Shown in pieces: positions 27,604 to 48,904 of a DNA stretch of 64,000 nucleotides. The notes under the pieces are model-generated. The model saw only the letters and a program-made list of their open reading frames with translations. It searched no databases and was not told the DNA's origin. A program made the position numbers and the translations under genes. This DNA comes from Acidimicrobiia bacterium (GTDB taxonomy: Bacteria > Actinomycetota > Acidimicrobiia > Spongiisociales > UBA5794): contig JAUIIM010000001.1 in assembly GCA_030431785.1 (NCBI GenBank), positions 3,323 through 67,322 of the forward strand, given 5' to 3'. The number at the start of each line of letters is the position of its first letter. Positions within the stretch are counted from its first letter, which is position 1.

Positions 27604-27610
27604 CATGCTA

Positions 27611-30008: not shown

Positions 30009-30046
30009 CCATGATCAGGTGTCTGTAGGCGGTAAGCCGGTCGACC

Positions 30047-31427: not shown

Positions 31428-32348
31428 TCAGTGTTGTGATTCGAGCCAGCGTTCGGCGTCAAGGGCCGCCTGGCACCCGAGACCCGCGGCCGTGATCGCT
31501 TGCCGGTAAACCTTGTCTGTGACATCTCCCGCGGCATAGACGCCCTCGACCGATGTGCGTGTCGTTCCCGGCGCTACGAGGATGTAGCCGGCTTCATCGA
31601 GATCGATCTGATCGGCGAACACCTTCGTGTTCGGGTTGTGGCCGATCGCCACGAATACACCGTCGGTCGCGAGTTCACTCGTCTCACCCGTCTTGATGTT
31701 CTCGAGCTTGACCCCCTCGACGACGGTCTCACCGAAGATCTCGGTGAGCACCGTGTCCCAGATGACTTCGATCTTCGGATGGTCGAGCACGCGCTGGGCC
31801 ATGATCGTCGACGCTCGGAATTCGTCGCGGCGGTGGATGACGGTGACCTTCGAGGCGAACTTCGTGAGGAAGAGGGCTTCCTCCATCGCTGAATCGCCGC
31901 CACCGACGACGACGAGTTCCTTGTCCCGGAAGAAGAATCCGTCACAGGTGGCGCAGGCGGAGACGCCGAATCCGGTCAGGCGTTGCTCGCCTTCGATTCC
32001 GAGCCATCGTGCGGATGCACCGGTCGAGATGATCACTGACTCGGCCGAGTACTCGTCTTCTCCCACCCAGATCTTGAACGGACGCTCGGAGAAGTCGACC
32101 TTGGAGACATCGGAACTGAGGATCCTGGTACCGAAGCGTTCCGCCTGTTTCCTGATCTGTTCCATGAGTTCGGGACCCATGATCCCATCGGGGAATCCGG
32201 GGAAGTTCTCGACGTCGGTCGTGATCATGAGCTGGCCACCACGTTCGAACCCCTCGACCATCAATGGATCCAGGCCGGCGCGTGCCGCATAGATCGCAGC
32301 GGTCAACCCGGCAGGACCACTGCCGATGATGATCAACTTCTCTGTCAT
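31428..32348 (-). CDS. trxB: thioredoxin-disulfide reductase
   Basis: [23 protein letters not shown] motif and CATCDG redox-active disulfide; start at MTEKLIIIG (32348). Confidence 0.9.
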
Positions 32349-32653
32349 GAAGACTCCTGGTTGTTGCGGTCTTGCGGATAGCGGCGGATCCACAGGATGG
32401 CGCCACCGACCACAAGGAGGAGGCCGACGACTGCGTACGCGACCTCCACGCCCATAAGCGTTCCAAGGGCTCGGAATATTCCCACCAGAAGCCAGAACAC
32501 AGCCATGCAGATGGCGGTGAGCAGCACGATCGCAATCGCCGCCCAGGTGACGCCGACGGCGACCCGGTCGACCGTCATCTCGCGGATGCGCGTAGCGAGG
32601 TCTTCGAGAAGGTTTGCGACTCGTGCGGACAGTGGCGGTGTGGGTTCCGGCAT
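32345..32653 (-). CDS. small membrane protein (2 TM), hypothetical
   Basis: Start taken at MPEPTPPLS (ATG 32653); the N-terminal extension in the track ORF is low complexity; ATGA overlap with trxB. Confidence 0.5.
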
Positions 32654-32684
32654 GACCGGCAGACTAGTCGTGCGAGGGGTTCGG

Positions 32685-33515
32685 TTAGCGGTCGAGGTCG
32701 ACCACGGCGCAGGAGTCGAGATCGACCGCAAGGGTGGATTGGACGCCGTTCTGTCCGGCGATTCCGAGAACAACGACCTGACCGTCGCTACCAGTTCCGT
32801 CGTATGCCCCGAGTACGAACACGTCGGTCGTGTCCTCGGGGAGTGTCGGTGCCAGGAGTTCGAGACATGCCTCGATGGCGACCGGATCGAGCGAAACGCG
32901 AGACGAGTAGCCGATGTCCTCGATCGACTCCGCTGCCATCTCCTGCGAGTCGTCCTCGGCGGTCGCGCTCATCAGCTCCGCCGATGAGGTTCCGGAGAGA
33001 TCGGGCACGGAGATCCTGTCGTTCGTCGGCGACACCTCGACGATGCGCTCCAGGTCCTGTGGTGTGAACGGGACCTCCGACGGTGCAGAGCCTGCTTCTG
33101 CGCCGTCGTCACCTGTTGCTTCGTCGGTGGTGATCTCGGAGAACGCTGCCTCGTCGCCACCGGACCCGAGGGTGCCGGGGACGACGATCACGGCGACGAC
33201 TGCTGCGGCGGCTGCAAGACCGGTCATCGGCTTCCACCATCTCGCAAACAGGCCCGTCGACGCTGCACGGGGAGTTGCGACTGGCTCGTCGAGTGCGAGC
33301 TGTTGCGTGAGGCGCTGTCGGAGATCCGAGGATTCGTCGGCGGTCATCGCAACAGGTCCGAGACTGGAGAGTGTGTCAGACACGGAGACCTGTTCGGCGT
33401 AAGCCGTGGCGAATGCAGGGTCGGTCTCCAGACGCGCACGAGCCGCTGCCGCGTCATCCGGTGGCAGCGTCTGGTCGATGAGACCGATGATCAGTTCGAG
33501 GTCGCGGTCGTTCAT
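32685..33515 (-). CDS. anti-sigma factor (single TM), cognate of the adjacent ECF sigma
   Basis: ATGA-coupled to the sigma gene; one TM near residue 100; acidic extracytoplasmic domain; no zinc-finger motif seen. Confidence 0.55.
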   Translation of the reverse strand: MNDRDLELIIGLIDQTLPPDDAAAARARLETDPAFATAYAEQVSVSDTLSSLGPVAMTADESSDLRQRLTQQLALDEPVATPRAASTGLFARWWKPMTGLAAAAAVVAVIVVPGTLGSGGDEAAFSEITTDEATGDDGAEAGSAPSEVPFTPQDLERIVEVSPTNDRISVPDLSGTSSAELMSATAEDDSQEMAAESIEDIGYSSRVSLDPVAIEACLELLAPTLPEDTTDVFVLGAYDGTGSDGQVVVLGIAGQNGVQSTLAVDLDSCAVVDLDR

Positions 33516-34096
33516 GGTTCTCCGTCTACGTCTGTTGGATGCTCGGAGTCCGGATTCAGGTTCCCAAGTTTTCGGGCAAGCTGTTTGCGCGCTCGAAACA
33601 GGCGGCTCTTCACCGTGCCGCTCGGGACCTCGAGGATATCTGCGGCCTGCTCAACAGAAAGGCCCTGGAGATCGACGAGAACGACTGCTGCGCGGAACTC
33701 TTCGTTGAGGTCGTCGAGGGCAGCCTCGATACTGGGCCGCACGTCCACCGACTCGAACGCATCGCCTGCGGCGACGTCTTCGGGATCGTACGATTCGGGC
33801 AACTGGTCGGCCTGTTTGCGCTTCTTGCGGCGGAGGTGGTCGTAGCAGGTGTTCATCGCGACGCGGTACAGCCATGTGGAGAACGCTGCCTTTGCCTTGA
33901 AGCGGTCTGCCTTCCGGAACACGGTGAGGAACGTGTCCTGCGTTGCATCGAGGGCGGCTTCGCGATCTCGCATCATGCGCAGACAGATCGCAAAGACCCG
34001 GTCCTCGTGTGCATCCATCAGCTCGTTGAACGCGTCGATGTCGCCAGTGAGGTACCGGTCGATCAGCGCAACGTCGAGGTCGGCACGGTCTGTCAT
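33512..34096 (-). CDS. sigM: ECF RNA polymerase sigma factor (SigM-like by synteny)
   Basis: Region 2 (LYRVAMNTCYDHLRR) and region 4 (LSVEQAADILEVPSGTVKSRLFRARKQL). Confidence 0.9.
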   Translation of the reverse strand: MTDRADLDVALIDRYLTGDIDAFNELMDAHEDRVFAICLRMMRDREAALDATQDTFLTVFRKADRFKAKAAFSTWLYRVAMNTCYDHLRRKKRKQADQLPESYDPEDVAAGDAFESVDVRPSIEAALDDLNEEFRAAVVLVDLQGLSVEQAADILEVPSGTVKSRLFRARKQLARKLGNLNPDSEHPTDVDGEP

Positions 34097-34180
34097 CTCG
34101 GTGCGAGGTTAGGCGGGCCGGGGATCGGAGGACCGAGGAGCGTTGGAGAAGGACGTCGTCTGGCGGCATGCGAGAATGCC

Positions 34181-35470
34181 CTAGCCGCCAAACGATACGT
34201 CGTTGATGATGGCCTGATACGAACCGTCGGCGCGCTCAGGGAGATCGATGAGCCACAGTTGCCAGAGCCCGCCGCCGCGGACGGGAACTGGGAGCATCAC
34301 CTGGGATTCGAGGAGCGTGCCGCGAGCGATGTGCTCCCACTCTTCTGGATCGTCTGGGACGGCCGGCGCCCACCCGATGATGAAGGTCGTGCCCGGAGAG
34401 CCGCGGACACCGATGGTCGTGGGGGTGCCGTCGACGTCGAACACCAGCCCCACACCGTCCTTGAACTCTCGGATCGGCATGGAGTACGCCTCGGTCTGCC
34501 ACGTCGTACCGAGGTCGCCATCGACGACGCTGCCCACGGAATCGTCGCTCTCGGTTCCGTCGCCGAGAGGGTCGTAGACCTCGACCGACGCGGCGAGGCC
34601 ATCACCCGGATCTGGGCCCTCTACGACGATCGGTGCCGTCGTCGAGGACGAACTGCCTGAGTTGCCTGCGACGGGGTACAGGAACGGGGAGTCCGGGTCG
34701 AAGTCGGCAGCCAACCCGACCGCAGCGATCGCACAGATCAGGACGGTGATCACGCCGATGGTCGCAAGCGTGCGCCACGGTCTCGGGGCCGCCACCTCGG
34801 TCGGGGCCGACGACTTCTCGGCCTCGAGCTGGGCAGCCAGTGCGGTCGCGTCGAGGGTTCCGTCCATGGCAGCTGCCAGTGCCTCATCCACACCTGGCCC
34901 CACGCCTTCGAGCACGACCGAGGGCATGACCGTCTGATCATGCGATCCGGTCAGGGCCGCGCGGATCACCTCCGCCAGCGCCACCGTGTCTGCTGCCTGA
35001 TCCCTCCAGCGAGCTTCACGACCGAACGCACCGATCTTGGCCGGATGCGCCGCTGAGTAGTGGACGGCGGTGGTGTCGATGGCGCCGTGGACACCACCTG
35101 TGTCATGGAACCGAGCAAGCGCATTGCACAACCCGGCGGCGTTGCTGATGAACTCGCCGGGTGGGATCCCCTCGCCAGCGCGGATCCGGTCCTCGATGGT
35201 GACTCCGCCGTCCCACTCACTCACCGAATACGCGGATGCAGTGGTCTCAGCGGCGGCGAACACCTTCTGGAGGTGCAGCTCGGTGAGGGCTGCCGCAGAC
35301 CGTACGCCCGTCAGGAACTCGGTGTGGCGGTCATGGGATGCCTCCGGAGCGAGATAGCGGACCAGCACCGGACGATCGAGCGACGCATCCTGGGCGAGCC
35401 ATTCCTCGACATCCCCGTCACTTCCGAGCCGTATGTGAAGGCGGTATCGCTCAGGAAGCCGGGGGGGCAT
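34181..35470 (-). CDS. stand-alone pseudokinase - TM - extracellular domain protein (MviN/MurJ C-terminal module-like)
   Basis: N-terminus YRLHIRLGSDGDVEEWLAQDASLDRPVLVRYL mirrors a Ser/Thr kinase N-lobe, but the catalytic residues are substituted (VAIK Lys to Arg; HRD to HGA; DFG to AFG). Single TM, then an extracellular domain of roughly 190 aa. Confidence 0.75.
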   Translation of the reverse strand: MPPRLPERYRLHIRLGSDGDVEEWLAQDASLDRPVLVRYLAPEASHDRHTEFLTGVRSAAALTELHLQKVFAAAETTASAYSVSEWDGGVTIEDRIRAGEGIPPGEFISNAAGLCNALARFHDTGGVHGAIDTTAVHYSAAHPAKIGAFGREARWRDQAADTVALAEVIRAALTGSHDQTVMPSVVLEGVGPGVDEALAAAMDGTLDATALAAQLEAEKSSAPTEVAAPRPWRTLATIGVITVLICAIAAVGLAADFDPDSPFLYPVAGNSGSSSSTTAPIVVEGPDPGDGLAASVEVYDPLGDGTESDDSVGSVVDGDLGTTWQTEAYSMPIREFKDGVGLVFDVDGTPTTIGVRGSPGTTFIIGWAPAVPDDPEEWEHIARGTLLESQVMLPVPVRGGGLWQLWLIDLPERADGSYQAIINDVSFGG

Positions 35471-35472
35471 CG

Positions 35473-36207
35473 CTACTCAGCCCGGAGTACGGCCAACGTC
35501 TCCGGGAGGAGGACATACCCCTCACTGTCGTACAAGGAGATGGCCGGGGTGTTCTCTGCTTGCGTGTTGAGCAGCATTGCTTTCGACCCTGAACGCTTTG
35601 CCGCCCGTGCAGCCGCCCTGATGAGGCTTCGTCCCATGCCTTGACCTTGCCAGTCCGGATGCACGGCGACCCGTTGGAGGTACGAGATGGCGTGCCCGTA
35701 TCCGACGATCGCATAGCCGGTGCACCCGCCAGCACCGTCGGCGATGACGAACAGGTCGGCTTTCGCTGTGGCATTGAGCGCCTCAGCTATCGCCGTGCCG
35801 TCGAACTGCCAGAACGAGGCGAACGCTGCCATGTCGATTTCGAGCAACTCTGCGGTGGAGACCTCCCGGTCCCGGTGTACGAGGTGGTCGGGACCCGGGA
35901 TGTCTCGGTCGAGGGACAGACGAAGCAAGGCCAGGTCGATCGAAGGGACAAAGCCTGCTGCTTCCCACGCTTTGCGGGCCGACATCGCGAGTGGCGTGGA
36001 GAGGATTGCGGGTGCGCCCAGATCCCGGAGACGATTGACACAATCCTCCAAGAACGCCGAGCCGCCGCGGATCAGCCGGAGGTGTGCCTCCGGGTGCGAC
36101 GCGTTCCATGGACGCGCCTCGGACCGAGCCCAGCCGCGTCGAAGCGAGACGGCACCGGGCCAGGTACCACGTTGGAACACGCGATGTGAGGTGTCTGTCA
36201 GAGCCAT
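35473..36207 (-). CDS. GNAT family N-acetyltransferase
   Basis: C-terminal acetyl-CoA binding fold (QRVAVHPDWQGQGMGRSLI); start at MALTDTS (36207). The rest of the 531-aa track ORF is a shadow of the plus-strand HDAC gene. Confidence 0.75.
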   Translation of the reverse strand: MALTDTSHRVFQRGTWPGAVSLRRGWARSEARPWNASHPEAHLRLIRGGSAFLEDCVNRLRDLGAPAILSTPLAMSARKAWEAAGFVPSIDLALLRLSLDRDIPGPDHLVHRDREVSTAELLEIDMAAFASFWQFDGTAIAEALNATAKADLFVIADGAGGCTGYAIVGYGHAISYLQRVAVHPDWQGQGMGRSLIRAAARAAKRSGSKAMLLNTQAENTPAISLYDSEGYVLLPETLAVLRAE

Positions 36208-36261
36208 GGGCCCCCTCCGTCGGACTTGGCGCTGTGCCGGTAGCGTAGCGACCGTTGCGAG

Positions 36262-37299
36262 GTGCCTCATCCGTGGCACAATCAGACGATGCCTTTGCAT
36301 CTTGCGACGCACTCCTCCAGTTTGGAGCACCACACACCGCGAGGTCACCCCGAACGCGTCGATCGGATCACGGCGGTCACCGGGGCGCTGCGGTCGGGTG
36401 CGGTTGATGTCCTCGAGCTGGATGCTCCGAAAGTGCACGAGGACCTGCTTGCCTCCGTGCATTCCCGTTCCTATCTGGAGTCGGTCCGCACCTTCTGCTC
36501 CTCCGGAGGAGGGTCCCTCGATCCTGACACCTACGTCGTCCCTGCCTCCTATGAGGCAGCGCTCCACGCAGCAGGTGCAGGACCCGCACTCGTGAACCGG
36601 ATGCGAACCCATTCCGGCCCCGGATTCGTGGCGGTCCGCCCTCCGGGTCATCACGCCGAGCGCGATCGTGCGATGGGGTTCTGCTTGTTCAACAACATCG
36701 CAGTCACCGCCAAGTTCCTTGCGGAGATGGGTCAGCGGGTTGCGATCGTCGATTGGGATGTCCACCACGGCAACGGCACCCAGAACACCTTCTTCAAGGA
36801 TCCTTCCGTCATGTATGTGTCGTTGCACGAGTTCCCGTTCTATCCGGGGACAGGGTGGGTCTCTGAGCTTGGAGAAGGGGACGCCGTGGGGACGACGATC
36901 AACATCGCGCTCCCGAACGGCACCACGTCGACCGACTACCTGGCTGCGTTTCGACAGCTTGTGCTGCCTCCCGTTCGCCAGTTCGATCCGTCCTGGATCC
37001 TCATCAGCAACGGTTACGACGCCCACGTCGATGATCCACTCGGTGGCCTCCGGTTGGAGTCGGAGCACTACGGGTGGATGGCGGCAGCACTCTGCGACAT
37101 CGTCCCGAGTGACCGCATTGTCGCCTTCCTCGAAGGAGGCTACGACCTCGGTGCGCTTGAGAGCGGATCGATCGCTACTGCCCGGGGTCTACTCGGTGCC
37201 TATGGCGACTTCGAGCTCCCCGACGAGGTCGTCGGGCAGGCGCGGCGTGTGACCGACATGGCAGCCGACCTGATCTCCCGGCACTGGGATCTCGGTTAA
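36262..37299 (+). CDS. histone deacetylase/acetoin utilization (HDAC/AcuC) family protein
   Basis: PPGHHAE...GFCLFNNIA...DWDVHHGNGTQ...LEGGY motifs; the ATG at 36288 is an alternative start. Confidence 0.85.
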   Translation: MPHPWHNQTMPLHLATHSSSLEHHTPRGHPERVDRITAVTGALRSGAVDVLELDAPKVHEDLLASVHSRSYLESVRTFCSSGGGSLDPDTYVVPASYEAALHAAGAGPALVNRMRTHSGPGFVAVRPPGHHAERDRAMGFCLFNNIAVTAKFLAEMGQRVAIVDWDVHHGNGTQNTFFKDPSVMYVSLHEFPFYPGTGWVSELGEGDAVGTTINIALPNGTTSTDYLAAFRQLVLPPVRQFDPSWILISNGYDAHVDDPLGGLRLESEHYGWMAAALCDIVPSDRIVAFLEGGYDLGALESGSIATARGLLGAYGDFELPDEVVGQARRVTDMAADLISRHWDLG

Positions 37300-37362
37300 G
37301 GAGGGGCGAAGCTCCGCCGATACATCGGCATAGCACTGTTCGTCGCGAGAAAGCCACCCTCA

Positions 37363-38448
37363 ATGTCACAGGAAACCCCCACGCTCGAAGAGATGCTCGA
37401 GCGTTTGCTCAAGGTCGGGGGTTCTGACCTCCACCTGAAGGTCGGCTCACCTCCGACGTATCGCATCGACGGCTCGCTTCAGAGGGCCGATCTGCCGTCC
37501 CTTACCGCAGATCGCACCGAGCAACTCCTCGAAGCGATGCTTCCCGCACACCTCGAGCGTCCGGGTCCGGGCCACGACATCGACTTCTCCTGGGGACGGT
37601 CGGATCTCGGCCGGTTCCGCGTGAACTCCTATACACAACGCGGTTCGGTGAACATCGTCGTGCGCTCGGTTCCACAGGTGACAGAACGGTTGCCCGACCT
37701 CGGCCTTCCTCAAGCGGTTGCGAAACTGTGCAACGCCCAAAGTGGACTGATCGTCATCGCTGGTCCGACAGGTGCAGGCAAGACGACGACCTCCGCTGCC
37801 ATCCTCGACGAGATCAACCGGACGCGGCCGGCAAGCATCATCACGATCGAGGATCCGATCGAGGTCCTCCACACCGATCAGCAGTCGATCGTGTCCCAGC
37901 GCGAGGTCGGACTCGACATCGGTTCTCTCGCCGAGGGGATGCAGAGTGTCGTGCGCCAGGACTGCGATGTTGTCTACCTCGCAGAGATGCGGGACCGTGC
38001 AACCATCGAGGAAGCCCTCGTCGCGGCCGAGACCGGTCACCTGGTCATCACCACGATGTACACGATGGATGCGGTCGAGACCGTGCATCGCATCCTTGAC
38101 TCCTTCCCGCCGTACCTCGAGCGCCGCATCCGCCAGATGCTCGGGACGTCACTCACCGCGATCGTTGCCCAGCGGCTGCTGCCGAGCAACGACGGATCCG
38201 GGCGGGTACCCGCCGTTGAGCTGATGCTCAACACGGAGGCGACCCGAGATCGCCTGCTCGGTGTCGAGCCGATGGACACGTTGTACGAGACGATCGCGGA
38301 AGGCGGCTTCTACGGGATGCAGACACTCGACCAGGCGATCGTGCAGCTGTACGAGGCAGGAAGGGTCACGTTCTCGGATGCACTCATGTACGTTGCATCG
38401 CCACGCGAGTTCAAGCTAGCGACCGGTTCACTCACCTCCATGGGGTAG
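37363..38448 (+). CDS. pilT: type IV pilus twitching-motility ATPase PilT
   Basis: GPTGAGKTTT Walker A and PilT signature; about 360 aa. Confidence 0.9.
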   Translation: MSQETPTLEEMLERLLKVGGSDLHLKVGSPPTYRIDGSLQRADLPSLTADRTEQLLEAMLPAHLERPGPGHDIDFSWGRSDLGRFRVNSYTQRGSVNIVVRSVPQVTERLPDLGLPQAVAKLCNAQSGLIVIAGPTGAGKTTTSAAILDEINRTRPASIITIEDPIEVLHTDQQSIVSQREVGLDIGSLAEGMQSVVRQDCDVVYLAEMRDRATIEEALVAAETGHLVITTMYTMDAVETVHRILDSFPPYLERRIRQMLGTSLTAIVAQRLLPSNDGSGRVPAVELMLNTEATRDRLLGVEPMDTLYETIAEGGFYGMQTLDQAIVQLYEAGRVTFSDALMYVASPREFKLATGSLTSMG

Positions 38449-38534
38449 AAGACTCGATCTACGACCGCGAGCCTCGAGTGTTGCGGACCGAGACGAAGCA
38501 GGTCGTGCGCCGGTAGCGGAACTATCGTCCGTCC

Positions 38535-39137
38535 ATGCCTGATTTCTCTTGTGCCGATTGCGGCGACGGTTTCTCGCTGCCTCAGCACGTTCTCGACCGG
38601 TATCCGGGGTGGACACCCAACAAGTGCCGGTCGTGTCGAGACGCAAAGAAGACCTCGGCTACCGGTAGCCGCCCCCGGAAACCCGCCGAGATCGTCGATG
38701 ATCCACAGGAGGGCGTCTTCACCGACGGCAGCTCGGTCCCGAATCCTGGGCCGGGCGGCTGGGCGGCGGTTCGTGTCGTCGACGGGGTGGAGGTCGATTC
38801 GCTCTCCGGATCGCATCCGGACACGACCAACAACCGCATGGAGCTCGAGGCGCTCATTCACGCCGTGGACCTCGTACCCGAGGGCGAGTCGGCGACCATC
38901 TATTCCGACTCCAATCTTGCCGTGCAGACGATCAACGAGTGGGCCGCAGGATGGAAAAGGCGTGGGTGGAAGCGGAAGTCGGGACCCGTGGAGAACCTGG
39001 ATCTCGTAAAGGTGGCATTCGAGAAGTACCAGGAACGACCCGAGTTGGAGCTTGTGTGGATTCGTGCCCATGTCGGGTTCACATGGAACGAACGAGCCGA
39101 CGAGTTGGCCAACATGGCACGGGAGACCGGACGATGA
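38535..39137 (+). CDS. rnhA: ribonuclease HI with N-terminal CxxC...CxxC zinc-ribbon-like extension
   Basis: CADC...CRSC, then the RNase H fold (TDGSSVPNPGPGGWAAV; NNRMELEAL; YSDS; HVGFTWNERADELA). Confidence 0.8.
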   Translation: MPDFSCADCGDGFSLPQHVLDRYPGWTPNKCRSCRDAKKTSATGSRPRKPAEIVDDPQEGVFTDGSSVPNPGPGGWAAVRVVDGVEVDSLSGSHPDTTNNRMELEALIHAVDLVPEGESATIYSDSNLAVQTINEWAAGWKRRGWKRKSGPVENLDLVKVAFEKYQERPELELVWIRAHVGFTWNERADELANMARETGR

Positions 39138-40549
39138 GCGGTATTCGCCTTGCCCGCATCGTCGACGACCGGGTCCGTGAACTCGCGGCAGCGTTTGCCG
39201 ACGAAGGGTTCTCGCTCTACCTCGTCGGCGGTTCGGTGCGCGATGCGCTGCTCGGACGTGCAGTGTCGGACCTCGACTTCACCACCGACGCCAGACCCGA
39301 CGAGATCGAACGAATCGGTTCGGAGTGGGCGTCGAGCATCTTCACCGCAGGCAAGGAGTTCGGGACGATCGGCCTCGTCCGCGATGGTCAGACGTACGAG
39401 GTCACAACATTCCGGTCGGAGATGTATCGGGACGATTCGCGCAATCCGGTTGTTTCGTTCAGCAACAGCCTCGAAGAGGACCTGAGCCGGCGGGACTTCA
39501 CGGTCAACGCCATGGCACTGCGGATTCCGCCCGACGACGCCGAGGACCCCGAGATGATCGATCCACACGGTGGGTTGACCGATCTCACCGGTCGTCTGCT
39601 ACGGACACCCCAGGACCCCGAGGTGTTGTTCTCCGACGATCCGCTGCGCATGCTTCGCCTGTTCCGGTTCATGTCGACGTTGGAGTTCGACCCCGACCCT
39701 GAAGCGCTGGCTGCGGTCCGAGCCATGTCACCTCGCCTGTCGATCATCTCCCGTGAACGGATCAGGACCGAACTCGACAAGCTCATCGTCGGTCCCGGTG
39801 TAGTCGCCGCCCTGACAGAGCTGGTCGTCTCCGGTCTTGCGGACGAGTTCATCCCGGAGGTGCCGGCGTTGGCTGTCGAGCAGGACCCGATACACCGACA
39901 CAAGGACGTCCTGGAGCACTCGATCATCGTGACTGCCCAGGCCGACGCACATCTCGACGAGCCCCGACTCGTCGTCCGGCTTGCTGCGCTGTTGCACGAC
40001 ATCGGAAAGCCCGCGACCCGCGAGTACGTCAAGGGCGGGGTCACGTTCCACCACCACGAGGTGGTGGGTGCCCGCATGGCCCGCAAACGGTTGAAGGAGC
40101 TGCGGTATCCGAAGGACATCGTCGAGGACGTCTCCAAGCTCGTGTTCCTCCACATGCGTCCGCACACGTTCAAGATGGGATGGTCCGACTCAGCGGTTCG
40201 TCGCTATGTCCGGGACGCGTCACCATTGGTCGACGAGCTGAACAGCTTGGTCCGGGCCGATGTCACGACCGGAAATGAACGCCGCGCACGACAGATCTCC
40301 CGGCGTATCGACGAGCTGGAGGAACGGATCGAGATCCTTCAGCAGCAAGAGGAGCTCGATGCGCTCCGTCCCCCGATCGATGGAAACCAGGTGATGGAGT
40401 ACCTCGGGATTCCGCCGTCTCGCACGGTCGGCGACATCATGGACATGCTCCTTGAGCGTCGTATCGAGGAAGGCCCCTATTCGGAGGAAGATGCCTTTGC
40501 GATGCTCGACGACTGGTCCGACCGCCAGGAGCGGTCAGACCAGTCGTAG
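39134..40549 (+). CDS. cca: CCA tRNA nucleotidyltransferase / poly(A) polymerase family (HD domain)
   Basis: LYLVGGSVRDALLG, then DLDFTT, and an HD domain; ATG 39134 overlaps the rnhA stop (ATGA). Confidence 0.85.
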   Translation: MSGIRLARIVDDRVRELAAAFADEGFSLYLVGGSVRDALLGRAVSDLDFTTDARPDEIERIGSEWASSIFTAGKEFGTIGLVRDGQTYEVTTFRSEMYRDDSRNPVVSFSNSLEEDLSRRDFTVNAMALRIPPDDAEDPEMIDPHGGLTDLTGRLLRTPQDPEVLFSDDPLRMLRLFRFMSTLEFDPDPEALAAVRAMSPRLSIISRERIRTELDKLIVGPGVVAALTELVVSGLADEFIPEVPALAVEQDPIHRHKDVLEHSIIVTAQADAHLDEPRLVVRLAALLHDIGKPATREYVKGGVTFHHHEVVGARMARKRLKELRYPKDIVEDVSKLVFLHMRPHTFKMGWSDSAVRRYVRDASPLVDELNSLVRADVTTGNERRARQISRRIDELEERIEILQQQEELDALRPPIDGNQVMEYLGIPPSRTVGDIMDMLLERRIEEGPYSEEDAFAMLDDWSDRQERSDQS

Positions 40550-40550
40550 C

Positions 40551-40590
40551 TGCTGGCTGCTGGCTGCTGGCTGCTGGCTGCTGGCTTCTC
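40551..40590. repeat. heptamer tandem array GCTGCTG x5
   Basis: gctgctggctgctggctgctggctgctggctgctg, immediately after the cca stop. Confidence 0.9.
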
Positions 40591-40660
40591 TCTTGCAATC
40601 GCCGTGCGAGATCGGACCACGGCGGGCGACCAGCGGCGCGCTCAGACACCGATCGATGAT

Positions 40661-40681
40661 CCATGATCGATGATCGAGAAC
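40661..40681. repeat. GATC-rich heptamer array ATGATCS x3
   Basis: atgatccatgatcgatgatcg. Confidence 0.8.
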
Positions 40682-40682
40682 G

Positions 40683-40722
40683 TCCGACAATCCGACAATC
40701 CGATAATCCGACGATCCGACGT
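40683..40722. repeat. octamer tandem array TCCGACAA x5 (reverse complement of the TTGTCGGA family)
   Basis: tccgacaatccgacaatccgataatccgacgatccgacgt. Confidence 0.9.
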
Positions 40723-40781
40723 ACCGGGGTGGGAGCAAGGAGCTAGGAGCGCTCCCTGGCCAAGGATCGGCCTCGCCCCCA

Positions 40782-40810
40782 TATACGCATAACTCTGCTG
40801 TATGCGTATA
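40782..40810. promoter_or_regulatory. candidate ArgR operator (ARG-box-like palindrome TATACGCATA-N9-TATGCGTATA)
   Basis: Perfect 10-bp inverted arms with a 9-nt spacer overlapping the argC start region; argR is encoded in the same operon. Confidence 0.45.
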
Positions 40811-41842
40811 CTCGCTCACATGTATACAGCAGCCGTGCTCGGCGCTTCCGGGTACGGCGGTGGCGAGCTCATCAGATTCCTCGATGGACATCCGGAGTTC
40901 TCCGTGTCCGTCCTCACTGCTCACTCGAAGGCGGGACAACGCCTCGGCGATGTCCACCCACACCTTTCGGGAGGGGATCGGGAACTCGTCCCCTTCGATC
41001 CCGACGTATGTGACGTCGATGTCGCCTTCCTTGCCCTTCCCCACGGTGCCTCGTCGGGACCCGCGATGGCGCTCCTCGAACGGGGTGTGCGTGTGGTCGA
41101 CCTCGGTAGCGATTTCCGACTCGACAGCCCTGAGCGATATCTCGCTGCCTACGGAACGGAGCATCCCTATCCGGACCAGCTGGGGGCCTGGGCGTACGGG
41201 CTCCCCGAACTGTTCATCGACGACATCGTCGTCTCGGACCGGGTCGCTGCGCCCGGGTGCTACCCAACATCGGCGATCATCCCGATCGCTCCACTGATCG
41301 GTGGACTCGTCGAGACAAGAGGGATCGTGGTCGACTCGATGTCCGGAGTCTCCGGCGCAGGACGTGCGGCGACCGACGGGCTCCGATTCGGATCGATCGA
41401 CGAATCCGTCAAGGCATACAAGGTGCTCGAGCACCGCCACCAACCGGAGATGCGACAGGCGCTCTCGGCGGTTTCGGGTGCAGATGTCCGTCTTGTGTTC
41501 ACCCCCCATCTCGTTCCGATGCAGCGCGGCATCCTTTCGACCATCTACCTCACACCGACCGCCGGTACCTCGCTTGCAGATGTGCACGATGCGTTCGATG
41601 CGATGTACGAGGGTGCTTCGTTCGTCCGTCGCAGCGCCGTACCGCCGGAGACCAGGTGGGTCGTCGGATCGAACAATGCGCTCGTCTCGTACCACCTCGA
41701 TGCTGAGGAGGGTGTCCTCGTCGCTGTATGTGCAATTGACAACCTCGTGAAGGGTGCCGCCGGACAGGCGGTGCAAAGCGCGAATGTGATGTTCGGATTC
41801 GCACAAGAGACCGGACTCCCGACCGAAGGATGGATGCCGTGA
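40802..41842 (+). CDS. argC: N-acetyl-gamma-glutamyl-phosphate reductase
   Basis: AVLGASGYGGGELIR NAD-binding N-terminus; the start is more likely ATG 40820 (MYTAAVLG). Confidence 0.9.
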   Translation: MRILAHMYTAAVLGASGYGGGELIRFLDGHPEFSVSVLTAHSKAGQRLGDVHPHLSGGDRELVPFDPDVCDVDVAFLALPHGASSGPAMALLERGVRVVDLGSDFRLDSPERYLAAYGTEHPYPDQLGAWAYGLPELFIDDIVVSDRVAAPGCYPTSAIIPIAPLIGGLVETRGIVVDSMSGVSGAGRAATDGLRFGSIDESVKAYKVLEHRHQPEMRQALSAVSGADVRLVFTPHLVPMQRGILSTIYLTPTAGTSLADVHDAFDAMYEGASFVRRSAVPPETRWVVGSNNALVSYHLDAEEGVLVAVCAIDNLVKGAAGQAVQSANVMFGFAQETGLPTEGWMP

Positions 41843-42738
41843 CCGGTCACACACCACCGAGCCCAGCCAAGCCACGGATCGCCCAGACGATGGGGAAAGC
41901 AGGGATCTTCTCCGAGGCCCTGCCCTTCATCCGACGTTTCCGTGACACGACCGTGGTCATCAAGTACGGCGGTTCGGCAATGGTCGACGACGATCTTCGC
42001 GAGACGTTCGCGGACGATGTCGCGATGCTCCACTACGTGGGCATCAACCCGGTGATCGTCCACGGAGGCGGCCCCCACATCTCGGCGGCCATGGGGCAGC
42101 GAGGGATGGAGCCACAGTGGGTGGAGGGTCTCCGCGTCACCGACGAGAAGACCATGCGCGTCGTACAGAGCACACTCGTGGGGGAGATCAACCCGGACAT
42201 CGTGCGGTTGGTGAACAACCACGGCCCGGTTGCCGCTGGGATCTCCGGGCTCGACGCCAACCTGTTCATCGCCGAACCCGAGGACGAGCGACTCGGCTAT
42301 GTCGGACGGGTTGCCGAAGTGAACGCGTCGCTCGTAGAAGGTCTCCAACAGCAGGGGTACGTCCCCGTTGTCGCCCCGATCGCACGGGGCCATGCCGGTG
42401 ATACGTACAACCTCAACGCAGACACCGCTGCGGGCGCACTCGCTGCGGCGCTCGGGGCCTCCAAGCTCGTTTTCCTCACGGATGTCGAAGGGCTCTATCG
42501 GGACTTCGGCGACGACTCGTCCCTGATCTCGCGGATCTCGCCCCCGGAACTCAGAGATTTGGTCGCCTCCGGGGCTGCCTCTGCAGGCATGATCCCGAAG
42601 ATCCAGGCCTCGCTCGATGCGCTGGACAACGGTGTCAAGCAGGTCCACATCCTCGATGGTCGCATCCAACACTCGGTGTTGTTGGAGATCTTCACCCCGG
42701 AAGGAATCGGCACGATGGTCGCCGACGGTGTGACATGA
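41830..42738 (+). CDS. argB: acetylglutamate kinase
   Basis: [10 protein letters not shown] and VIVHGGGP motifs. Confidence 0.9.
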
Positions 42739-43193
42739 GGGGCGACACCGGGATGCGGCGCCGCCGAATACGCGCACTGATCGGCGAGATGGACATCTCG
42801 ACCCAGGACCGTCTCCGCGACGCTCTCGGTGCCGAAGGATTCGACGTGACACAGGCGACGGTGTCGCGCGATCTGTCGGCACTCGGTGCGAGACGCGTCA
42901 AAGAGGACGGCGAGTTTGTCTACCGGATCGTTGCGGAGGAACCGGGTGCGGCTGCCGTCGCCGCCCTTCGAGACGCTTTCGAAGAGTTCGTGGAACACAC
43001 CGACATCTCAGGGAATCTCATCGTCCTGCGGGTCCCACCGGGTGCTGCTCACCTCGTGGCGAGTCGTATCGATGAAGCCCGTGTGGAAGGCGCGCTCGGA
43101 ACGGTTGCCGGGGACGACACGATCCTCGTCGTGGCCGACGAGCAGGTAGGTCCGGCAGAAGTCATCAACAGAATGCAAGGAACGAGTCGATGA
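42735..43193 (+). CDS. argR: arginine repressor
   Basis: Winged-helix N-terminus (TQATVSRDL) and a C-terminal oligomerisation domain about 150 aa long. Confidence 0.85.
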
Positions 43194-44407
43194 AGAGAGA
43201 TATCAAAAAGGTGGTCCTCGCGTACAGCGGTGGACTCGACACCTCCGTGATCCTGAAGTGGATCAAGGAGGAGTACGGGGCGGAGGTCGTGGCGTACACG
43301 GCCGACGTAGGTCAGGGGGAAGAGGTCGAAGAGGCAAGGGTCAAGGCACTCGAGACCGGCGCCGTCGAGGCGATCTGTGAGGATCTCACCGAAGAGTTCG
43401 TGTCCGAGTACGTCTTCCCTGCGTTCCGGGCATCCGCGTTGTACGAGGGCTATTACCTCATGGGGACGTCACTCGCACGACCGGTCATTTCGAAGGGTCT
43501 CGTTCGCGCTGCCATCGAGACCGGTGCCGATGCCATCGCCCACGGTGCGACGGGGAAGGGCAACGACCAGGTCCGGTTCGAGTTGTCGGCCTATGCGCTG
43601 AAGCCGGACATCAAGGTGATCGCCCCGTGGAGGGAATGGGATCTGAAGGGACGCGCCGACTGTATTGCGTACGCCGAGTCGCACGGCATCCCAGTGCCGG
43701 TGACGACCGAGAAGCCGTACTCGATGGATGCGAACCTGCTCCACATCTCGTACGAGGGTGGGGTCCTCGAGGACCCGTGGAACGGTCCGCCCGCAGACAT
43801 GTTCCAGATGACCGTTGATCCGACCGATGCCCCCAATGAGCCGGAGTACGTGACGATCGGATACGAGGCCGGTGATCCGGTCTCGGTGAACGGTGTCGCG
43901 ATGTCGCCGGTCGAGATCCTCTCGACGCTCAACGAGATCGGTGGGCGTCACGGTGTCGGACGCGTGGACATCGTCGAGAACCGATTCGTCGGGATGAAGA
44001 GCCGTGGGGTGTACGAGACGCCCGGTGGAACGATCCTCTACCACGCCCATCGGGCAGTCGAATCACTCACGCTCGATCGTGAGGTCGCCCATCTCCGCGA
44101 CGAGTTGTCGAATCGCTACGCCGAGATGGTCTACAACGGCTTCTGGTTCGCACCGGAGCGGGAGGCACTTCAGCAGTTCATGGACGATCTCCAGAAGCCG
44201 GTGACCGGTGACGCTCGCATCAAGCTCTACAAGGGCCAAGCAATCGTCGATGGTCGGCGTTCGGACACTCATGCCCTCTACGACGAAGCGACCGTGACGT
44301 TCGAGGCCGATGATGTCTATAACCAAGCAGATGCAGAAGGCTTCATCAGGCTTCAGTCGCTACGTTTGCGTACCTTTGCCGAGAAGCGAATCGGAGAAGG
44401 GGAGTAG
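43190..44407 (+). CDS. argG: argininosuccinate synthase
   Basis: [15 protein letters not shown]-loop. Confidence 0.95.
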
Positions 44408-44409
44408 TC

Positions 44410-45801
44410 ATGTCACTGTGGGCTGGGGGACGATTCACCGATGGGCCGGACGATGTCCTGTGGCGCTTCACCGCGGATCCCATCGATCGCCGTCTCCTGC
44501 ATGTCGATGTCCTCGGATCGATTGCCCATGTTTCGATGCTCGGCGAGCAGGGTCTTATCGACACCGATGATGCCGCGACGCTGGCTGACGGACTCCGCCA
44601 GATCGAGGTCGAGGCAGTCGAAGGCACGTTTGCGTTCCATGACTCTGATGAGGACGTCCACACCGCTGTGGAACGGCGTCTCGGTGAACTGGTCGGTGAT
44701 ATCGCCGGCAAACTCCACACGGCGCGATCGCGCAACGACCAAGTGGCGCTCGACCTTCGTCTCTATCTCATCCGCGCCACGAAACGGAACATCGACGGGC
44801 TGCTCGGTCTCATCGATGCCCTCGTGTCCAAGGCCGAGGAGGCCGGTGACATCGTGGTCCCGTCCTACACGCACCTCCAGCAGGCCCAAGCGGTGCCGCT
44901 TGCGCATCATCTCCTCGCCTATGCGTGGATGCTGGTGCGCGACGGTTCACGGTTCACCGATGCGGTGTCGCGCATTGGCATCTCTCCGCTCGGAGCAGGG
45001 GCGTCGGGTGGCTCCTCGCTCGGCATCGATCCGTCCGCGACGGCTGCGGCGCTCGGGATGAATGCTTCGTTCTCCAACTCGATGGACGCCGTCGCGTCGC
45101 GTGACGTCGCCGCTGAGTTCGTGTGGTGTTGCAGTCAGGCGATGATCCATCTGTCACGCCTCTCGGAGGACCTGATCCTCTGGGCATCGTCCGAGTTCGG
45201 CTGGGTCACGTTCGGGGATGCGTTCACCACCGGCTCGTCTGCGATGCCACAGAAGAAGAATCCGGACATCGCCGAACTGGCACGTGGGCGAGCAGCCACG
45301 GTCATCGGGGACCTCACGACGATCCTCACGCTGCAAAAGGGGCTGCCGATGACGTACAACCGGGACCTTCAGGAGGACAAGCGGCCGGTGTTCCATGCCG
45401 ATGACACCCTCAGCGGATCGCTCGAAGCCTTGACCGGGCTCATCGGTTCGGCCGAATTTCACCCGCCGGCACCGGATGCGTGGGTCACCGCCTTGGACCT
45501 CGCCGAGGTGCTGGTCGAGCGGGGAGTTCCGTTCCGCGAGGCGCACCATGTCGTGGGGAAGATCGTCTCGAGCCTCTCGGCGGACGGTGCAACGTTCGCC
45601 GATCTCGATGGTGCCGCTCTGGTCGCCTTCGATCAGCGGTTTCATCCCGACGACATCTCACGTGTCGATCCGATTGCGTCCGTCACCCACCGAGTTTCAC
45701 CGGGTGGGGCGTCGATGGAGTCAGTCGAGGGACAGATCGCAGCGTTGCGGCAGCTGCTCGCTGGTGCCGACCCCGGACGGCAGTCGGACAACGCGGTCTG
45801 A
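44410..45801 (+). CDS. argH: argininosuccinate lyase
   Basis: Fumarate-lyase signature GSSAMPQKKNPD. Confidence 0.95.
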   Translation: MSLWAGGRFTDGPDDVLWRFTADPIDRRLLHVDVLGSIAHVSMLGEQGLIDTDDAATLADGLRQIEVEAVEGTFAFHDSDEDVHTAVERRLGELVGDIAGKLHTARSRNDQVALDLRLYLIRATKRNIDGLLGLIDALVSKAEEAGDIVVPSYTHLQQAQAVPLAHHLLAYAWMLVRDGSRFTDAVSRIGISPLGAGASGGSSLGIDPSATAAALGMNASFSNSMDAVASRDVAAEFVWCCSQAMIHLSRLSEDLILWASSEFGWVTFGDAFTTGSSAMPQKKNPDIAELARGRAATVIGDLTTILTLQKGLPMTYNRDLQEDKRPVFHADDTLSGSLEALTGLIGSAEFHPPAPDAWVTALDLAEVLVERGVPFREAHHVVGKIVSSLSADGATFADLDGAALVAFDQRFHPDDISRVDPIASVTHRVSPGGASMESVEGQIAALRQLLAGADPGRQSDNAV

Positions 45802-45818
45802 GCGTCTCACTTGTTCGC

Positions 45819-46007
45819 TCAGGCGGCCTGCGGGATCACGGTCGCCGGTGCGGCACACACCGCACATGCCGCCGTGTCGCACCCGTCGACGACCTCGACG
45901 GCAAGTCCGGCGTCTTCGAACCACGCCGTGAGTGCATCGTCGGTCATCGTCGCCAGCGATTCATCGATCACTATTCCGTTCATGTCGAGGTGAGTCATCG
46001 TCATCAT
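45819..46007 (-). CDS. possible small Cys-rich protein (MMTMTHLDMNGIVIDES...DGCDTAACAVCAAP)
   Basis: C-terminal 62 codons of the 222-aa track ORF have good GC3 and a CxxxxCxxC cluster; no clear RBS. Confidence 0.3.
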   Translation of the reverse strand: MMTMTHLDMNGIVIDESLATMTDDALTAWFEDAGLAVEVVDGCDTAACAVCAAPATVIPQAA

Positions 46008-46040
46008 GTGCACAACGTATCGACAGGGTGTGACAGATTT

Positions 46041-46065
46041 GCGGCTCCGCAGGCCTGCGGAGCCG
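46041..46065. repeat. perfect hairpin GCGGCTCCGCAGG-cc-TGCGGAGCCG
   Basis: Read directly. Confidence 0.6.
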
Positions 46066-46066
46066 A

Positions 46067-46134
46067 GACCGCTCGGCTGTTGCCTCGCTTCAAGATGCAA
46101 GACCGCTCGGCTGTTGCCTCGCTCAAAGATGAGA
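46067..46134. repeat. 34-nt tandem direct repeat x2 (GACCGCTCGGCTGTTGCCTCGCTTCAAGATGCAA)
   Basis: Two adjacent copies, about 90 percent identical. Confidence 0.85.
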
Positions 46135-46166
46135 GCGGTTGATCTGAGATCGAGGGCTATCCGACC

Positions 46167-46198
46167 ATCTGACAATCTGACAATCTGACCGTCTGGCC
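46167..46198. repeat. octamer tandem array ATCTGACA x3-4 (reverse complement TGTCAGAT; variant of the TGTCGGAT family)
   Basis: atctgacaatctgacaatctgaccgtctggcc. Confidence 0.8.
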
Positions 46199-46217
46199 GT
46201 CCGTTACTCTCGGGTGC

Positions 46218-46559
46218 ATGGAATACCGCAAGTACACCGATGCAGCACCGTTCGAGTTCGGGGATCTCCAGCTCCGCGAGTTGACACCAGATGCGTTCGA
46301 CCTCGCCTCGTTCGCCGAGATCGTGGTCCCGATCGGTGCGGACCGCGAGCCTCGTGTCTCCGCAAAGACGCACCGCATCTACATCTGTTTCGTCGGGGAG
46401 ATCGAGTTCTCGGTGGACGACGCCACGATTCGCATCACTCCGGGCGACGTGCTCCATATCTCCGAAGGCGAGACCTACGGTTTCCACAACGGCGGATATC
46501 AGGAAGGCCGACTCCTGTTGATCCGTGTTCCGGGTCCATCGCTGCCGGAGAACCTCTGA
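46218..46559 (+). CDS. cupin domain protein
   Basis: Small beta-barrel cupin-like sequence (ICFVGEIEF...GDVLHISEGETYGFHN). Confidence 0.65.
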   Translation: MEYRKYTDAAPFEFGDLQLRELTPDAFDLASFAEIVVPIGADREPRVSAKTHRIYICFVGEIEFSVDDATIRITPGDVLHISEGETYGFHNGGYQEGRLLLIRVPGPSLPENL

Positions 46560-46661
46560 GCCGAGCTGTCAGGAGTGCGGTACCCATCCGCCATCAACCG
46601 GATGTCGAGTTGGGGGCGAGTCGTTCGTCGGAAGGGTGAGAACCCGCATACGAGGAGGATC

Positions 46662-47012
46662 ATGATGGGTCACTATTTGCTTTCTGTCTGGCACGAAGAC
46701 GAGTACGAGGTCGAGTTCGAGAGCGATGAGATGCAACGCATCGTCGCCCAGGTCGATGCGTTCAATCAGGAACTCGATCGTTCCGGTGCGATGGTCTACG
46801 CCAACGGACTCCAACCCGCGTCGACGGCAAAGGTGATCAAAGGCATCGACCTGTCCGTCACGGACGGACCGTTTGCCGAATCGAAAGAGCAGATGGGCGG
46901 CTTCTGGATCATCGATGCGGAGTCCCATGAAGCAGCGATGGAGTGGGCTCGCAAGGGCGCCGCAGCCTGCGAGGGTCCCGTCGAAGTCCGAGCGATGCAA
47001 GGGCCGGAGTAG
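46662..47012 (+). CDS. YciI family protein
   Basis: Start MMGHYLL with GAGGAGGA RBS; YCII-like DGPFAESKEQMGGFWII motif. Confidence 0.8.
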   Translation: MMGHYLLSVWHEDEYEVEFESDEMQRIVAQVDAFNQELDRSGAMVYANGLQPASTAKVIKGIDLSVTDGPFAESKEQMGGFWIIDAESHEAAMEWARKGAAACEGPVEVRAMQGPE

Positions 47013-47046
47013 CCGGCAGAACGCCCCCACCGGCTCGCTGTTTTCT

Positions 47047-47096
47047 GCAACCCAGAGCTAGAACGGTGAATATTCCCCAACCTAGCTCTGGGTTGC
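47047..47096. repeat. REP-like palindromic element copy 2 (inverted relative to copy 1)
   Basis: gcaacccagagctag-aacggtgaatattccccaac-ctagctctgggttgc; one mismatch versus the reverse complement of 2523..2572. Confidence 0.8.
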
Positions 47097-47097
47097 G

Positions 47098-48699: not shown

Positions 48700-48838
48700 T
48701 GTCCTCTCGTCCGATGTCCCTCCTTCCCTTTGTCCCTTCTTCCCTTGATCCCTTCGTCTCTTCGTCCCTTTGTCCCTTCTTCCCTTGATCCCTTTGTCCC
48801 TTTGTCCCTTCTTCCCTTCCTCCCTTCCTCCCCTCGTC
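48700..48838. repeat. octamer tandem array TCCCTTNN, about 17-18 copies (reverse complement GAAGGGA family)
   Basis: tcccttctTCCCTTgatcccttcgtctcttcgtccctttgtcccttct... read directly; ends about 65 bp before the ppc start. Confidence 0.9.
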
Positions 48839-48904
48839 CTCAGTACTGCACGTGTCGCGTACCGAACTACCGTGGTTCGCATGGATGGTGTGGGTACCAG
48901 AGAG

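Follow-up and report, generated by a model that had tools for sequence, protein, structure and literature searches.

A strain-variable spacer of heptamer and octamer repeats next to a conserved argC promoter and operator-like element in an Acidimicrobiia bacterium

We describe a composite island of tandem repeats in a 64,000-nt stretch of DNA from an Acidimicrobiia bacterium (contig JAUIIM010000001.1 of assembly GCA_030431785.1; hereafter the window, with a G+C content of 62.4%). The island occupies the spacer between cca, which encodes a CCA-adding enzyme, and argC, the first gene of an arginine operon. With moderate confidence, we interpret it as a dispensable, strain-variable spacer of 7-8-nt repeats that lies beside a separate, conserved argC promoter and operator. 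Such a spacer would be composed of a stem-loop at the end of cca followed by three arrays (of 7, 7 and 8 nt) from families of long simple sequence repeats present in intergenic DNA across the genome. The arrays would arise and change through replication slippage or unequal exchange, and would survive only where reading frames are left unbroken. They would have no specific role in arginine regulation, and would serve at most as unstructured filler between the end of cca and the argC promoter. The population would harbour two or more non-homologous alleles of the spacer, and homologous recombination would exchange them through flanks that are constrained by the end of cca on the left and by the operator and -10 box on the right. 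The argC core promoter would be overlapped by a two-part operator, at which an ArgR hexamer may block RNA polymerase when arginine is plentiful. Table 1 collects the coordinates of all these features.

The evidence for a replaceable spacer comes from a near-identical strain, represented by a 15.6-kb contig from another sample (L001) that was found by exact look-up of ArgB. This contig is 99.78% identical to the window over 8875 bp to the left of the island (window 31647-40521), and 98.87% identical over 6282 bp to the right (40801-47076), with zero mismatches along the first ~3.3 kb of the right flank (40801-44160). Between the two flanks, the 279 bp at window 40522-40800 are swapped for an unrelated 96 bp (L001 8876-8971), and a local alignment of the two spacer alleles finds no similarity (score 16, compared to a shuffle mean of 16.2). 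The left breakpoint comes right behind the last conserved residues of the cca protein (...MLDDWS, ~40521). The right breakpoint is the first base of the proximal operator arm (40801), which is also exactly where a contig from a third sample (L002) starts. The last nine codons of cca belong to the strain-variable segment: the window protein ends in DRQERSDQS and that of L001 in EKRQTTNDERQRD, the latter encoded by a heptamer array, (CGACRAA) x4 (L001 8876-8915). A relation between this 7-mer array and the 8-mer TCCGACAA of the window, which we considered, remains unsupported. Despite their different spacers and upstream sequences, both alleles retain a TATRCGCATA 10-mer exactly 9 nt upstream of the proximal arm TATGCGTATA. 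Because L001 lacks the window arrays yet keeps both 10-mers, the comparison argues that the arrays are dispensable and that the two-part palindrome is constrained. The initial annotation of this region, made from the sequence alone, had proposed a modular assembly of repeat cassettes in a promoter region. The concatenation of several recurrent families stands, but the arrays do not appear to be part of the regulatory unit, since a 99.8%-identical strain without them keeps the operator and the -10 box. A scan of JGI metagenomes with ArgC gives no relative above 66% identity, the 90% protein clusters of the window products have two members each and add no further island alleles, and exact look-ups of four other window proteins give no match. 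At 275 bp from the left boundary of the island, 11 mismatches to L001 are concentrated within 44 bp of cca coding sequence (40204-40247) whose surroundings are 99.9% identical; this cluster looks like a short recombination or conversion tract.

What the two strains share upstream of argC is an operator-like element at the promoter. In the window, TATACGCATA and TATGCGTATA form a perfect inverted repeat, with 10-nt arms and a 9-nt gap (fold z = -4.1), just as the initial annotation reported. In L001 the distal arm is TATGCGCATA, at the identical 9-nt distance. The pattern TATRCGYATA, allowing up to one mismatch, occurs twice in 64 kb, both times at cca-argC, and the centres of the two TATRCRYATA 10-mers are separated by 19 bp in each allele and by 17-20 bp in the related loci L005-L011. 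An alignment of 28 sequences upstream of argC identifies the conserved pattern TGCAT(W)-N7-YGCAT/ATGCGTATA-YT (the slash marks where two half-sites abut). In this alignment that pattern, and not the perfect palindrome, is the class-wide conserved feature. Its ATGCGTATA part, or a 1-mismatch variant, is present in 28/28 sequences, and the 13-mer GCATATGCGTATA is found exactly in 19 Acidimicrobiia loci, one per locus and always 30-60 bp before argC. The motif is found nowhere else in the window or in the compared loci; argJ, argD, argF and carAB all lie outside the window. The distal half is variable (TATACGCATA, TATGCGCATA, TATACACATA, TATATGCATA and others) and lies 17-20 bp from the proximal half.

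The palindrome had also been described as overlapping the argC start. It does cover the first ATG of the open reading frame (40802), but the start is most likely the in-frame ATG at 40820, given the TATACT-ATG spacing without a ribosome-binding site and the agreement with the 340-aa NCBI product; argC would thus be a leaderless gene. The palindrome overlaps the -35 and -10 regions and not the true start codon. All ArgC homologues align from MYTAAVLGASGYGG, and the best species-representative match to the window ArgC has 75% amino-acid identity; by this similarity the window belongs to an uncultured member of the Acidimicrobiia. In 10/10 sequences of the window's clade (window, L001, L005-L011), TATACT is found 6-7 nt before the ATG with no Shine-Dalgarno sequence; in the L012-L020 clade, a TATATT is followed by a 20-27-nt leader with GAGG or AAGG. 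We identify TATACT as the -10 box because of this clade-wise pattern of TATACT/TATATT relative to the ATG. A consensus promoter and terminator scan finds no full sigma-70 consensus promoter, and its sole terminator-like call, which is weak evidence, is the self-pairing of a heptamer array before TTCTCTCTT. The binder of the argC operator is probably ArgR, to judge from motif words and gene context. ArgR is the obvious candidate because argR belongs to the same operon, whose promoter the operator overlaps, and because experimentally bound ARG boxes of Streptomyces coelicolor hold TGCAT/ATGCG words (for example argG_1, CTTTGCATGGTCATGCGTAA), arranged as two contiguous 20-nt boxes (PMC5839063). 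The ArgR-box palindrome of the initial annotation is therefore retained as a conserved operator-like element at the argC promoter of an operon that includes argR, but it lacks the canonical geometry. We describe it as ArgR-type by context, and refrain from classing it among canonical ARG boxes because the S. coelicolor matrix does not discriminate it. The arginine cluster itself (40820-45801) reads argC-argB-argR-argG-argH, without the argJ, argD and argF of the usual actinobacterial argCJBDFR order.

As for the repeats, Tandem Repeats Finder (TRF) and a repeat search confirm the three arrays reported between cca and argC. The interval assigned to the whole composite (40551-40722) holds the arrays; the hairpin and the palindrome listed with them are found at 40731-40810. 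The GCTGGCT array begins at the final base of the cca stop codon, and TTCTCTCTT comes next. The octamer array is unusually unstructured as RNA (fold z = +2.2). We rejected the GGGAGC...GCTCCC hairpin as a feature: it is no more stable than shuffled sequences (fold z = +0.24), 111/200 of which fold equally well. The stem-loop across the end of cca (40509-40547), absent from the initial annotation, is strong, with a folding energy of -30.4 kcal/mol, z = -6.1 and 0/200 shuffles as stable. It is a candidate transcript end or terminator hairpin for cca, without a U-tract. Its right half lies within the variable segment, so the stem-loop is absent from the L001 allele. Rfam gives no match, either for the whole window at the gathering threshold or for 40300-41000 at E<=1, and by that standard the cca-argC island is not a known RNA.

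Table 1. Positions of the features between and around cca and argC, numbered from the first base of the window.
Feature	Position	Strand	Details
cca (CCA-adding enzyme / poly(A) polymerase family)	39134-40549	+	Pfam PolyA_pol, PolyA_pol_RNAbd and HD; 471-aa product in NCBI
Stem-loop across last cca codons	40509-40525 / 40531-40547	+	17-nt arms, 94% complementary, 5-nt loop; repeat search
Strain-variable segment, 279 bp	40522-40800		blastn blocks and alignment against L001
(GCTGGCT) x5.4 heptamer array (rotation of GCTGCTG)	40549-40586		units 100% identical; TRF period 7
(GATCGAT/GATCCAT) x3.9 heptamer array, nearly self-complementary	40651-40677		90% identical; TRF period 7; the ATGATCS of the initial annotation
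(TCCGACAA) x4.8-5 octamer array, decaying toward its 3' end	40683-40722 (TRF 40683-40720)		90% identical; TRF period 8 and repeat search
GGGAGC...GCTCCC 6-bp stem, with weak GGAGCNA repeat	40731-40756		not significant as a hairpin
Weak GGAGCNA x2.7 repeat	40732-40750		TRF score 31
Distal operator arm TATACGCATA	40782-40791		-35 region; within the variable segment
Proximal operator arm TATGCGTATA	40801-40810		part of the class-wide (YGCAT)ATGCGTATA element
-10 box TATACT	40806-40811	+	overlaps the proximal arm
argC	40820-41842	+	Pfam Semialdhyde_dh and dimerisation domains; NCBI product 340 aa
argR	42735-43193	+	Pfam Arg_repressor and Arg_repressor_C; third gene of the argC-argB-argR-argG-argH operon

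Arrays of this kind are abundant in the window. With a period of 6-9, a minimum of 3 copies and a TRF score of at least 40 as thresholds, we find 9 arrays, compared to a mean of 0.15 (range 0-1) in 20 dinucleotide shuffles, an excess of about 60-fold. They are noncoding except for one, which makes the C-terminal tail of an amine oxidase gene. The strong arrays are all either intergenic or in the last codons of genes, as expected if units with a length that is not a multiple of 3 are largely kept out of coding sequence. The coding array, (CTCCGTT) x4 at 4196-4223, forms the last 9 codons of the amine-oxidase-family gene, whose Pfam domain ends at residue 504 of 521. There, and at L001 8876-8915, heptamer arrays that enter 3' coding ends result in variable C-terminal tails. 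The repeat families of the island recur at other intergenic loci in both orientations, as the initial annotation had noticed, with matches for all three units. For the TCCGACAA array there is a 31-nt match at 97% identity on the opposite strand (15731-15761), while 11940-11966 holds more copies and 46160-46185 a variant with 1 mismatch. Matches to the GATCGAT/GATCCAT block are found at 29990-30016 (27 nt, 96%) and again at 4147-4167, and GCTGGCT, when reverse-complemented, differs by one mismatch from the unit in the (AGCCAGG) x9.4 array at 27610-27675. Relative to transcription, the units have the same orientation in 4/4 TCCGACAA-type arrays and opposite orientations in the GGGACGAA pair (27567 and 48717) and in the AGCCAGS pair (27610 and 40549). 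No general or simple RNA-level rule emerges from unit orientation. The longest array of the window, (TCCCTTCN) x14.5 at 48717-48839, has a higher-order periodicity of 16/24/40 nt. It stops 33 nt short of the gene for phosphoenolpyruvate carboxylase (48872-51595), and reads as the GACGAAGG array at 27567-27602 in reverse complement.

To see how such arrays vary between strains, we compared four other islands with contigs of the same population. The island at 4109-4223 is identical in an independent assembly, as part of a 4066-bp match at 100%, and the island at 29962-30046 is also identical between strains. At 45802-46217 there are base substitutions only, some of them inside the octamer array, and copy number is unchanged. 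The island at 27405-27698 is different. Here AGCCAGG is repeated 9.4 times in the window and ~2.6 times in contig L095 (positions 1-60), where the flank is 99.97% identical and a small deletion adjoins the difference. The units of the adjoining octamer array are also different in L094 and L095; in L094 (4025-4059, compared to window 27567-27602) it is made of GATGAAGG units instead of GACGAAGG. The flanks of these polymorphic arrays are 99.9-99.97% identical, and 3/4 of the structural strain differences across the ~27 kb compared are within repeat islands. This pattern of variation fits slippage-prone simple repeats with episodic change and not a fast switch. Short-read Logan contigs tend to end in arrays or in a hairpin that resembles a repetitive extragenic palindromic (REP) element, and several contigs of metagenome-assembled genomes (MAGs) stop just upstream of argC.

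The same picture extends to the class. Across 27 loci from Acidimicrobiia (167 kb) the array density is 1.3 per 10 kb, compared to 0.48 in outgroup loci (272 kb). Other arrays are found upstream of argC in several species (AAGCYGA in L006 and L008, GCTGTCC x4.6 in L015, TCTCCTG x5 in L020), some have none there, and all of the window arrays are absent from L001. Upstream of argC in L007, another Acidimicrobiia MAG, one heptamer forms an inverted pair (CCGTCTA, complement GGTAGAC) at 14-38 and 116-147, ~80 bp apart. The C-terminal tails of cca differ among the window, L001, L006, L008 and L011. In the L012-L020 clade, the argG-argH spacer, which is a gap of only 2 nt in the window, consists almost entirely of concatenated heptamer arrays that differ by species: AGTACTC; AACAGCC; AGTCGCC with CGGACTA and CCGAGTA; AACAGCC with CGGACTA; and CAGCGAA with CGGACTA. 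Because these spacers hold other concatenated arrays, composite islands are common in the class and not specific to the arg promoter. A full-text literature search found no description of intergenic tandem repeats in Acidimicrobiia.

Several observations weigh against a dispensable spacer beside an ArgR-controlled promoter, or against parts of that interpretation. The island is known in only two alleles, and the window allele comes from a single MAG contig. Copy number does not change at 46159-46201 and 29992-30016 between strains with 0.03-1% divergence; with some arrays unchanged in this way, slippage would not be very fast. Regarding the operator, no registration gives two good half-sites at the TGCAT-N4-ATGCA spacing, and against a matrix derived from 15 S. 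coelicolor boxes the site scores 8.7 and 7.7 bits, which places it 13th in the window. Many arrays stop 9-33 nt short of a start codon, a hint that they may act within the mRNA. Units also recur more often than expected. There are 4 octamer pairs within 1 mismatch in the window where ~0.04 are expected, and among 34 arrays there are 13 identical-unit pairs, of which ~5 are non-orthologous, where roughly 0.35 are expected for heptamers under a uniform null. AGTACTC appears in the window, L012 and L017, even though the nearest relatives of L017 have other units at that place. The recurrence of units at unlinked loci and across species is the one feature that neutral slippage leaves unexplained.

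That recurrence would be accounted for if the arrays were functional modules drawn from a limited lineage vocabulary of 7-8-nt words, acting either as multivalent sites for a DNA- or RNA-binding protein or as deliberately unstructured tracts by which termination, insulation or translation initiation of adjacent genes is tuned, so that the island would be a genuine combinatorial regulatory assembly. We consider this rather unlikely. The arrays that end shortly before start codons, the lack of structure in the TCCGACAA octamer array, and the concatenated islands that, in seven species, occur within the arg operon immediately before the ribosome-binding site of argH are all consistent with it, as is the case of the Beggiatoaceae TAACTGA repeats, which occur upstream of start codons and are proposed to be translation regulators (PMC4679880). 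However, the near-identical strain without the island retains the promoter and operator, orientation relative to transcription is not conserved in the GGGACGAA and AGCCAGS families, the difference between 9.4 and ~2.6 copies carries no sign of constraint, and orthologous spacers have different units or none. The island arrays are also upstream of the promoter of a leaderless gene, hence outside its mRNA unless cca reads through. A more far-reaching proposal is that a limited vocabulary of 7-8-nt words (such as AGTACTC, AACAGCC/AGCCAGS, CGGACTA, TCCGACAA and GATCGAT) is shared among the Acidimicrobiia and possibly beyond them, and is expanded and combined into islands. A conserved factor that binds DNA or RNA would recognise these islands, or they would be under some other selection, for instance as an unstructured standby site or insulator, and strains would swap them as whole cassettes. 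If this were true, the cca-argC island would be one instance of an undescribed lineage-wide modular non-coding layer; we find the proposal distinctly unlikely. A unit vocabulary that crosses phyla, based on matches in IMG/VR, was rejected: if heptamer arrays are generally common, any unit is expected many times in 2.9 million contigs, and the null is too weak. Scans of that database give 4 stretches of (TCCGACAA)n and 11 of (AGTACTC)n, in contigs with 35-64% GC, and do not discriminate between the readings. We also made no use of a hand count in which 17/18 units lack ATG, GTG and TTG (~0.71 expected per array), a result that is marginal and sensitive to composition.

The sharp boundaries and the non-homologous content between near-identical flanks would also be expected of a small mobile or horizontally acquired cassette, either an element resembling REPs or miniature inverted-repeat transposable elements (MITEs), or an insertion-excision footprint with 7-8-bp target duplications. 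The contig from the third sample that breaks exactly at 40801 agrees with such a cassette, the mismatch cluster in cca suggests recombination tracts nearby, and unit lengths of 7-8 bp equal common target-duplication lengths, although this last point is inference only. We give it little credence. The segment 40522-40800 lacks terminal inverted repeats and is not bordered by direct repeats, and neither a transposase nor an integrase gene is nearby; a MITE/REP element was rejected for this reason, and because only the arrays recur and not the whole segment. The other allele is also unique sequence with an array of its own, which implies replacement and not insertion relative to an empty site, and in both alleles the left operator arm is inside the segment. 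Frequent slippage could in principle make the island a contingency locus, altering promoter geometry so as to switch or tune the argC operon. The perfectly homogeneous (GCTGGCT)5.4 units imply a recent expansion, a sister array is polymorphic in copy number, and the island is upstream of the promoter. But the arrays are upstream of the -35 region, neither in the -35/-10 spacer nor in the 5' end of the coding sequence, and they end at 40722, 60 bp upstream of the distal arm and -35 region. Three independent arrays with periods of 7 and 8 define no on/off register, two other arrays keep their copy number between strains, arginine biosynthesis is not a typical phase-variable function, and the strain difference here is a wholesale replacement and not a change in units. 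We find phase variation very improbable. To an assembly artefact, in which short repeats in metagenomic reads were mis-assembled into arrays and their concatenation, we give almost no weight. It is true that the window allele is known from one MAG contig, that Logan contigs repeatedly break in arrays and in the REP-like hairpin, and that MAG contigs end upstream of argC. However, every array is shorter than 70 bp and thus below read length, the cca reading frame passes cleanly through the junction to its stop codon, and similar arrays appear in dozens of independent assemblies. The island at 4109-4223, which has the same families, is also reproduced at 100% in an independent assembly, and so is most of 27405-27698, though without full identity.

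Other features of the window are noted here for completeness. The window spans the chromosomal origin region, with dnaA at 22974-24362 on the minus strand (the DnaA Pfam domains are identified on a matching contig). Clusters of DnaA-box-like 9-mers lie on both sides of dnaA (region 22778-24600), and are followed by rpmH-yidD-yidC-jag-rsmG-parA-parB. Between jag and rsmG, amid AGTACNC repeats, there is a perfect parS site, TGTTTCACGTGAAACA, at 27474-27489, and a second one with one mismatch at 27544-27559. The REP/MITE-like hairpin mentioned above is ~50 bp long (GCAACCCAGAGCTAG ... CTAGCTCTGGGTTGC) and is found at gene ends, at 2521-2574 and 47045-47097. The two copies carry the loop in opposite orientations, and it is in this loop that one Logan contig breaks. 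A cupin-like gene is preceded, at 46066-46131, by a direct repeat of 34 bp, x1.9 (AGACCGCTCGGCTGTTGCCTCGCTCAAAGATGCA), which comes after a GC-rich hairpin (GCGGCTCCGCAGGCCTGCGGAGCCG) and is kept in L001 with one substitution. The long spacers at 11705-12501 and 54068-54267 have conspicuous hairpins and repeat fragments, such as GGCCCGAAGGGCCGG and GGGGCCGCCTTGCGGCGGCCCC, with no Rfam match. These two look like terminators in an apparently divergent promoter region, and the spacers may contain small unannotated genes or RNAs.

For annotation, the value of these results is to tell a real regulatory element, composed of the argC operator, its -10 box and a probable leaderless start at 40820, apart from dispensable repeats; the corrected argC start is relevant in its own right. 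More generally, the spacers of uncultured Acidimicrobiia have dense heptamer and octamer arrays that recur as families and vary between strains 99.8-99.97% identical. The arrays enter C-terminal tails and break short-read assemblies, which is useful to know when reading MAG fragmentation and strain heterogeneity. Should the units be recognised by a factor, this would help with an old question, namely what purpose heptanucleotide repeats such as the cyanobacterial STRR and the Beggiatoa TAACTGA repeats serve; nothing in the present evidence calls for such a function.

Intergenic regulatory regions are reportedly replaced via homologous recombination in the flanking genes, as Oren et al. are said to have found in 2014. 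The cca-argC spacer resembles that kind of replacement in having non-homologous intergenic alleles between near-identical genes of close strains. It differs in that the core promoter and operator are kept, and what is swapped is the upstream spacer with the C-terminal tail of cca. Heptanucleotide repeats of the STRR type were reportedly described in cyanobacteria by Mazel et al. in 1990. Compared to phase-variable simple sequence repeat loci of Haemophilus, Neisseria and others, there are short tandem repeats near a promoter and copy-number polymorphism in a sister array; here, however, the repeats are outside the -35/-10 region and the coding 5' end, the operon is a housekeeping one, the units are long, and the arrays are few and some of them stable. 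The argC site shares with the ARG boxes of S. coelicolor (PMC5839063) and Escherichia coli two adjacent imperfect palindromes about two helical turns apart over the argC promoter, TGCAT/ATGCG half-sites, and an argR gene in the cluster. The two tandem boxes of those systems are ~20-21 bp apart, a spacing to which we count that of the 10-mers here (19 bp; 17-20 bp in L005-L011) as equivalent. Unlike those boxes, the core YGCAT/ATGCGTATA is fused to the -10 box, its half-sites YGCAT/ATGCG abut, a distal TGCATW is ~10-11 bp upstream, and there are no contiguous 20-nt TGCAT-N4-ATGCA boxes. The TAACTGA repeats of marine Beggiatoaceae are intergenic, often just upstream of starts and sometimes mixed with other heptamer arrays, and they break assemblies (MacGregor 2015, PMC4679880). 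Both these and the STRR repeats are like the window arrays in that a small set of heptamers appears in few tandem copies in many spacers, with several families per spacer and contig ends at the repeats. They differ in that the window has other units, octamers as well as heptamers and no dominant unit, and its host is a high-GC bacterium of another phylum. The closest description is that of long simple sequence repeats, with units of 5-11 nt. According to the summary of Mrazek et al. (2007) given in PMC4679880, heptanucleotides are the commonest class of these in prokaryotes, polymerase slippage is the proposed origin, and the repeats are abundant in scattered lineages that include some Actinobacteria. 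Shared features are tandem units of 7-8 nt, lengths beyond chance, a mostly intergenic location and copy-number variation between strains, whereas the concatenation of several units in one spacer and the presence of the same units at many loci are different. The island fits this description on all the features that we tested, with unit-number polymorphism seen at AGCCAGG and whole-segment replacement at the island itself. It is a new example, from a little-studied class, of known kinds of elements, and its residual novelty is the recurring vocabulary of units together with the cassette-like exchange of alleles.

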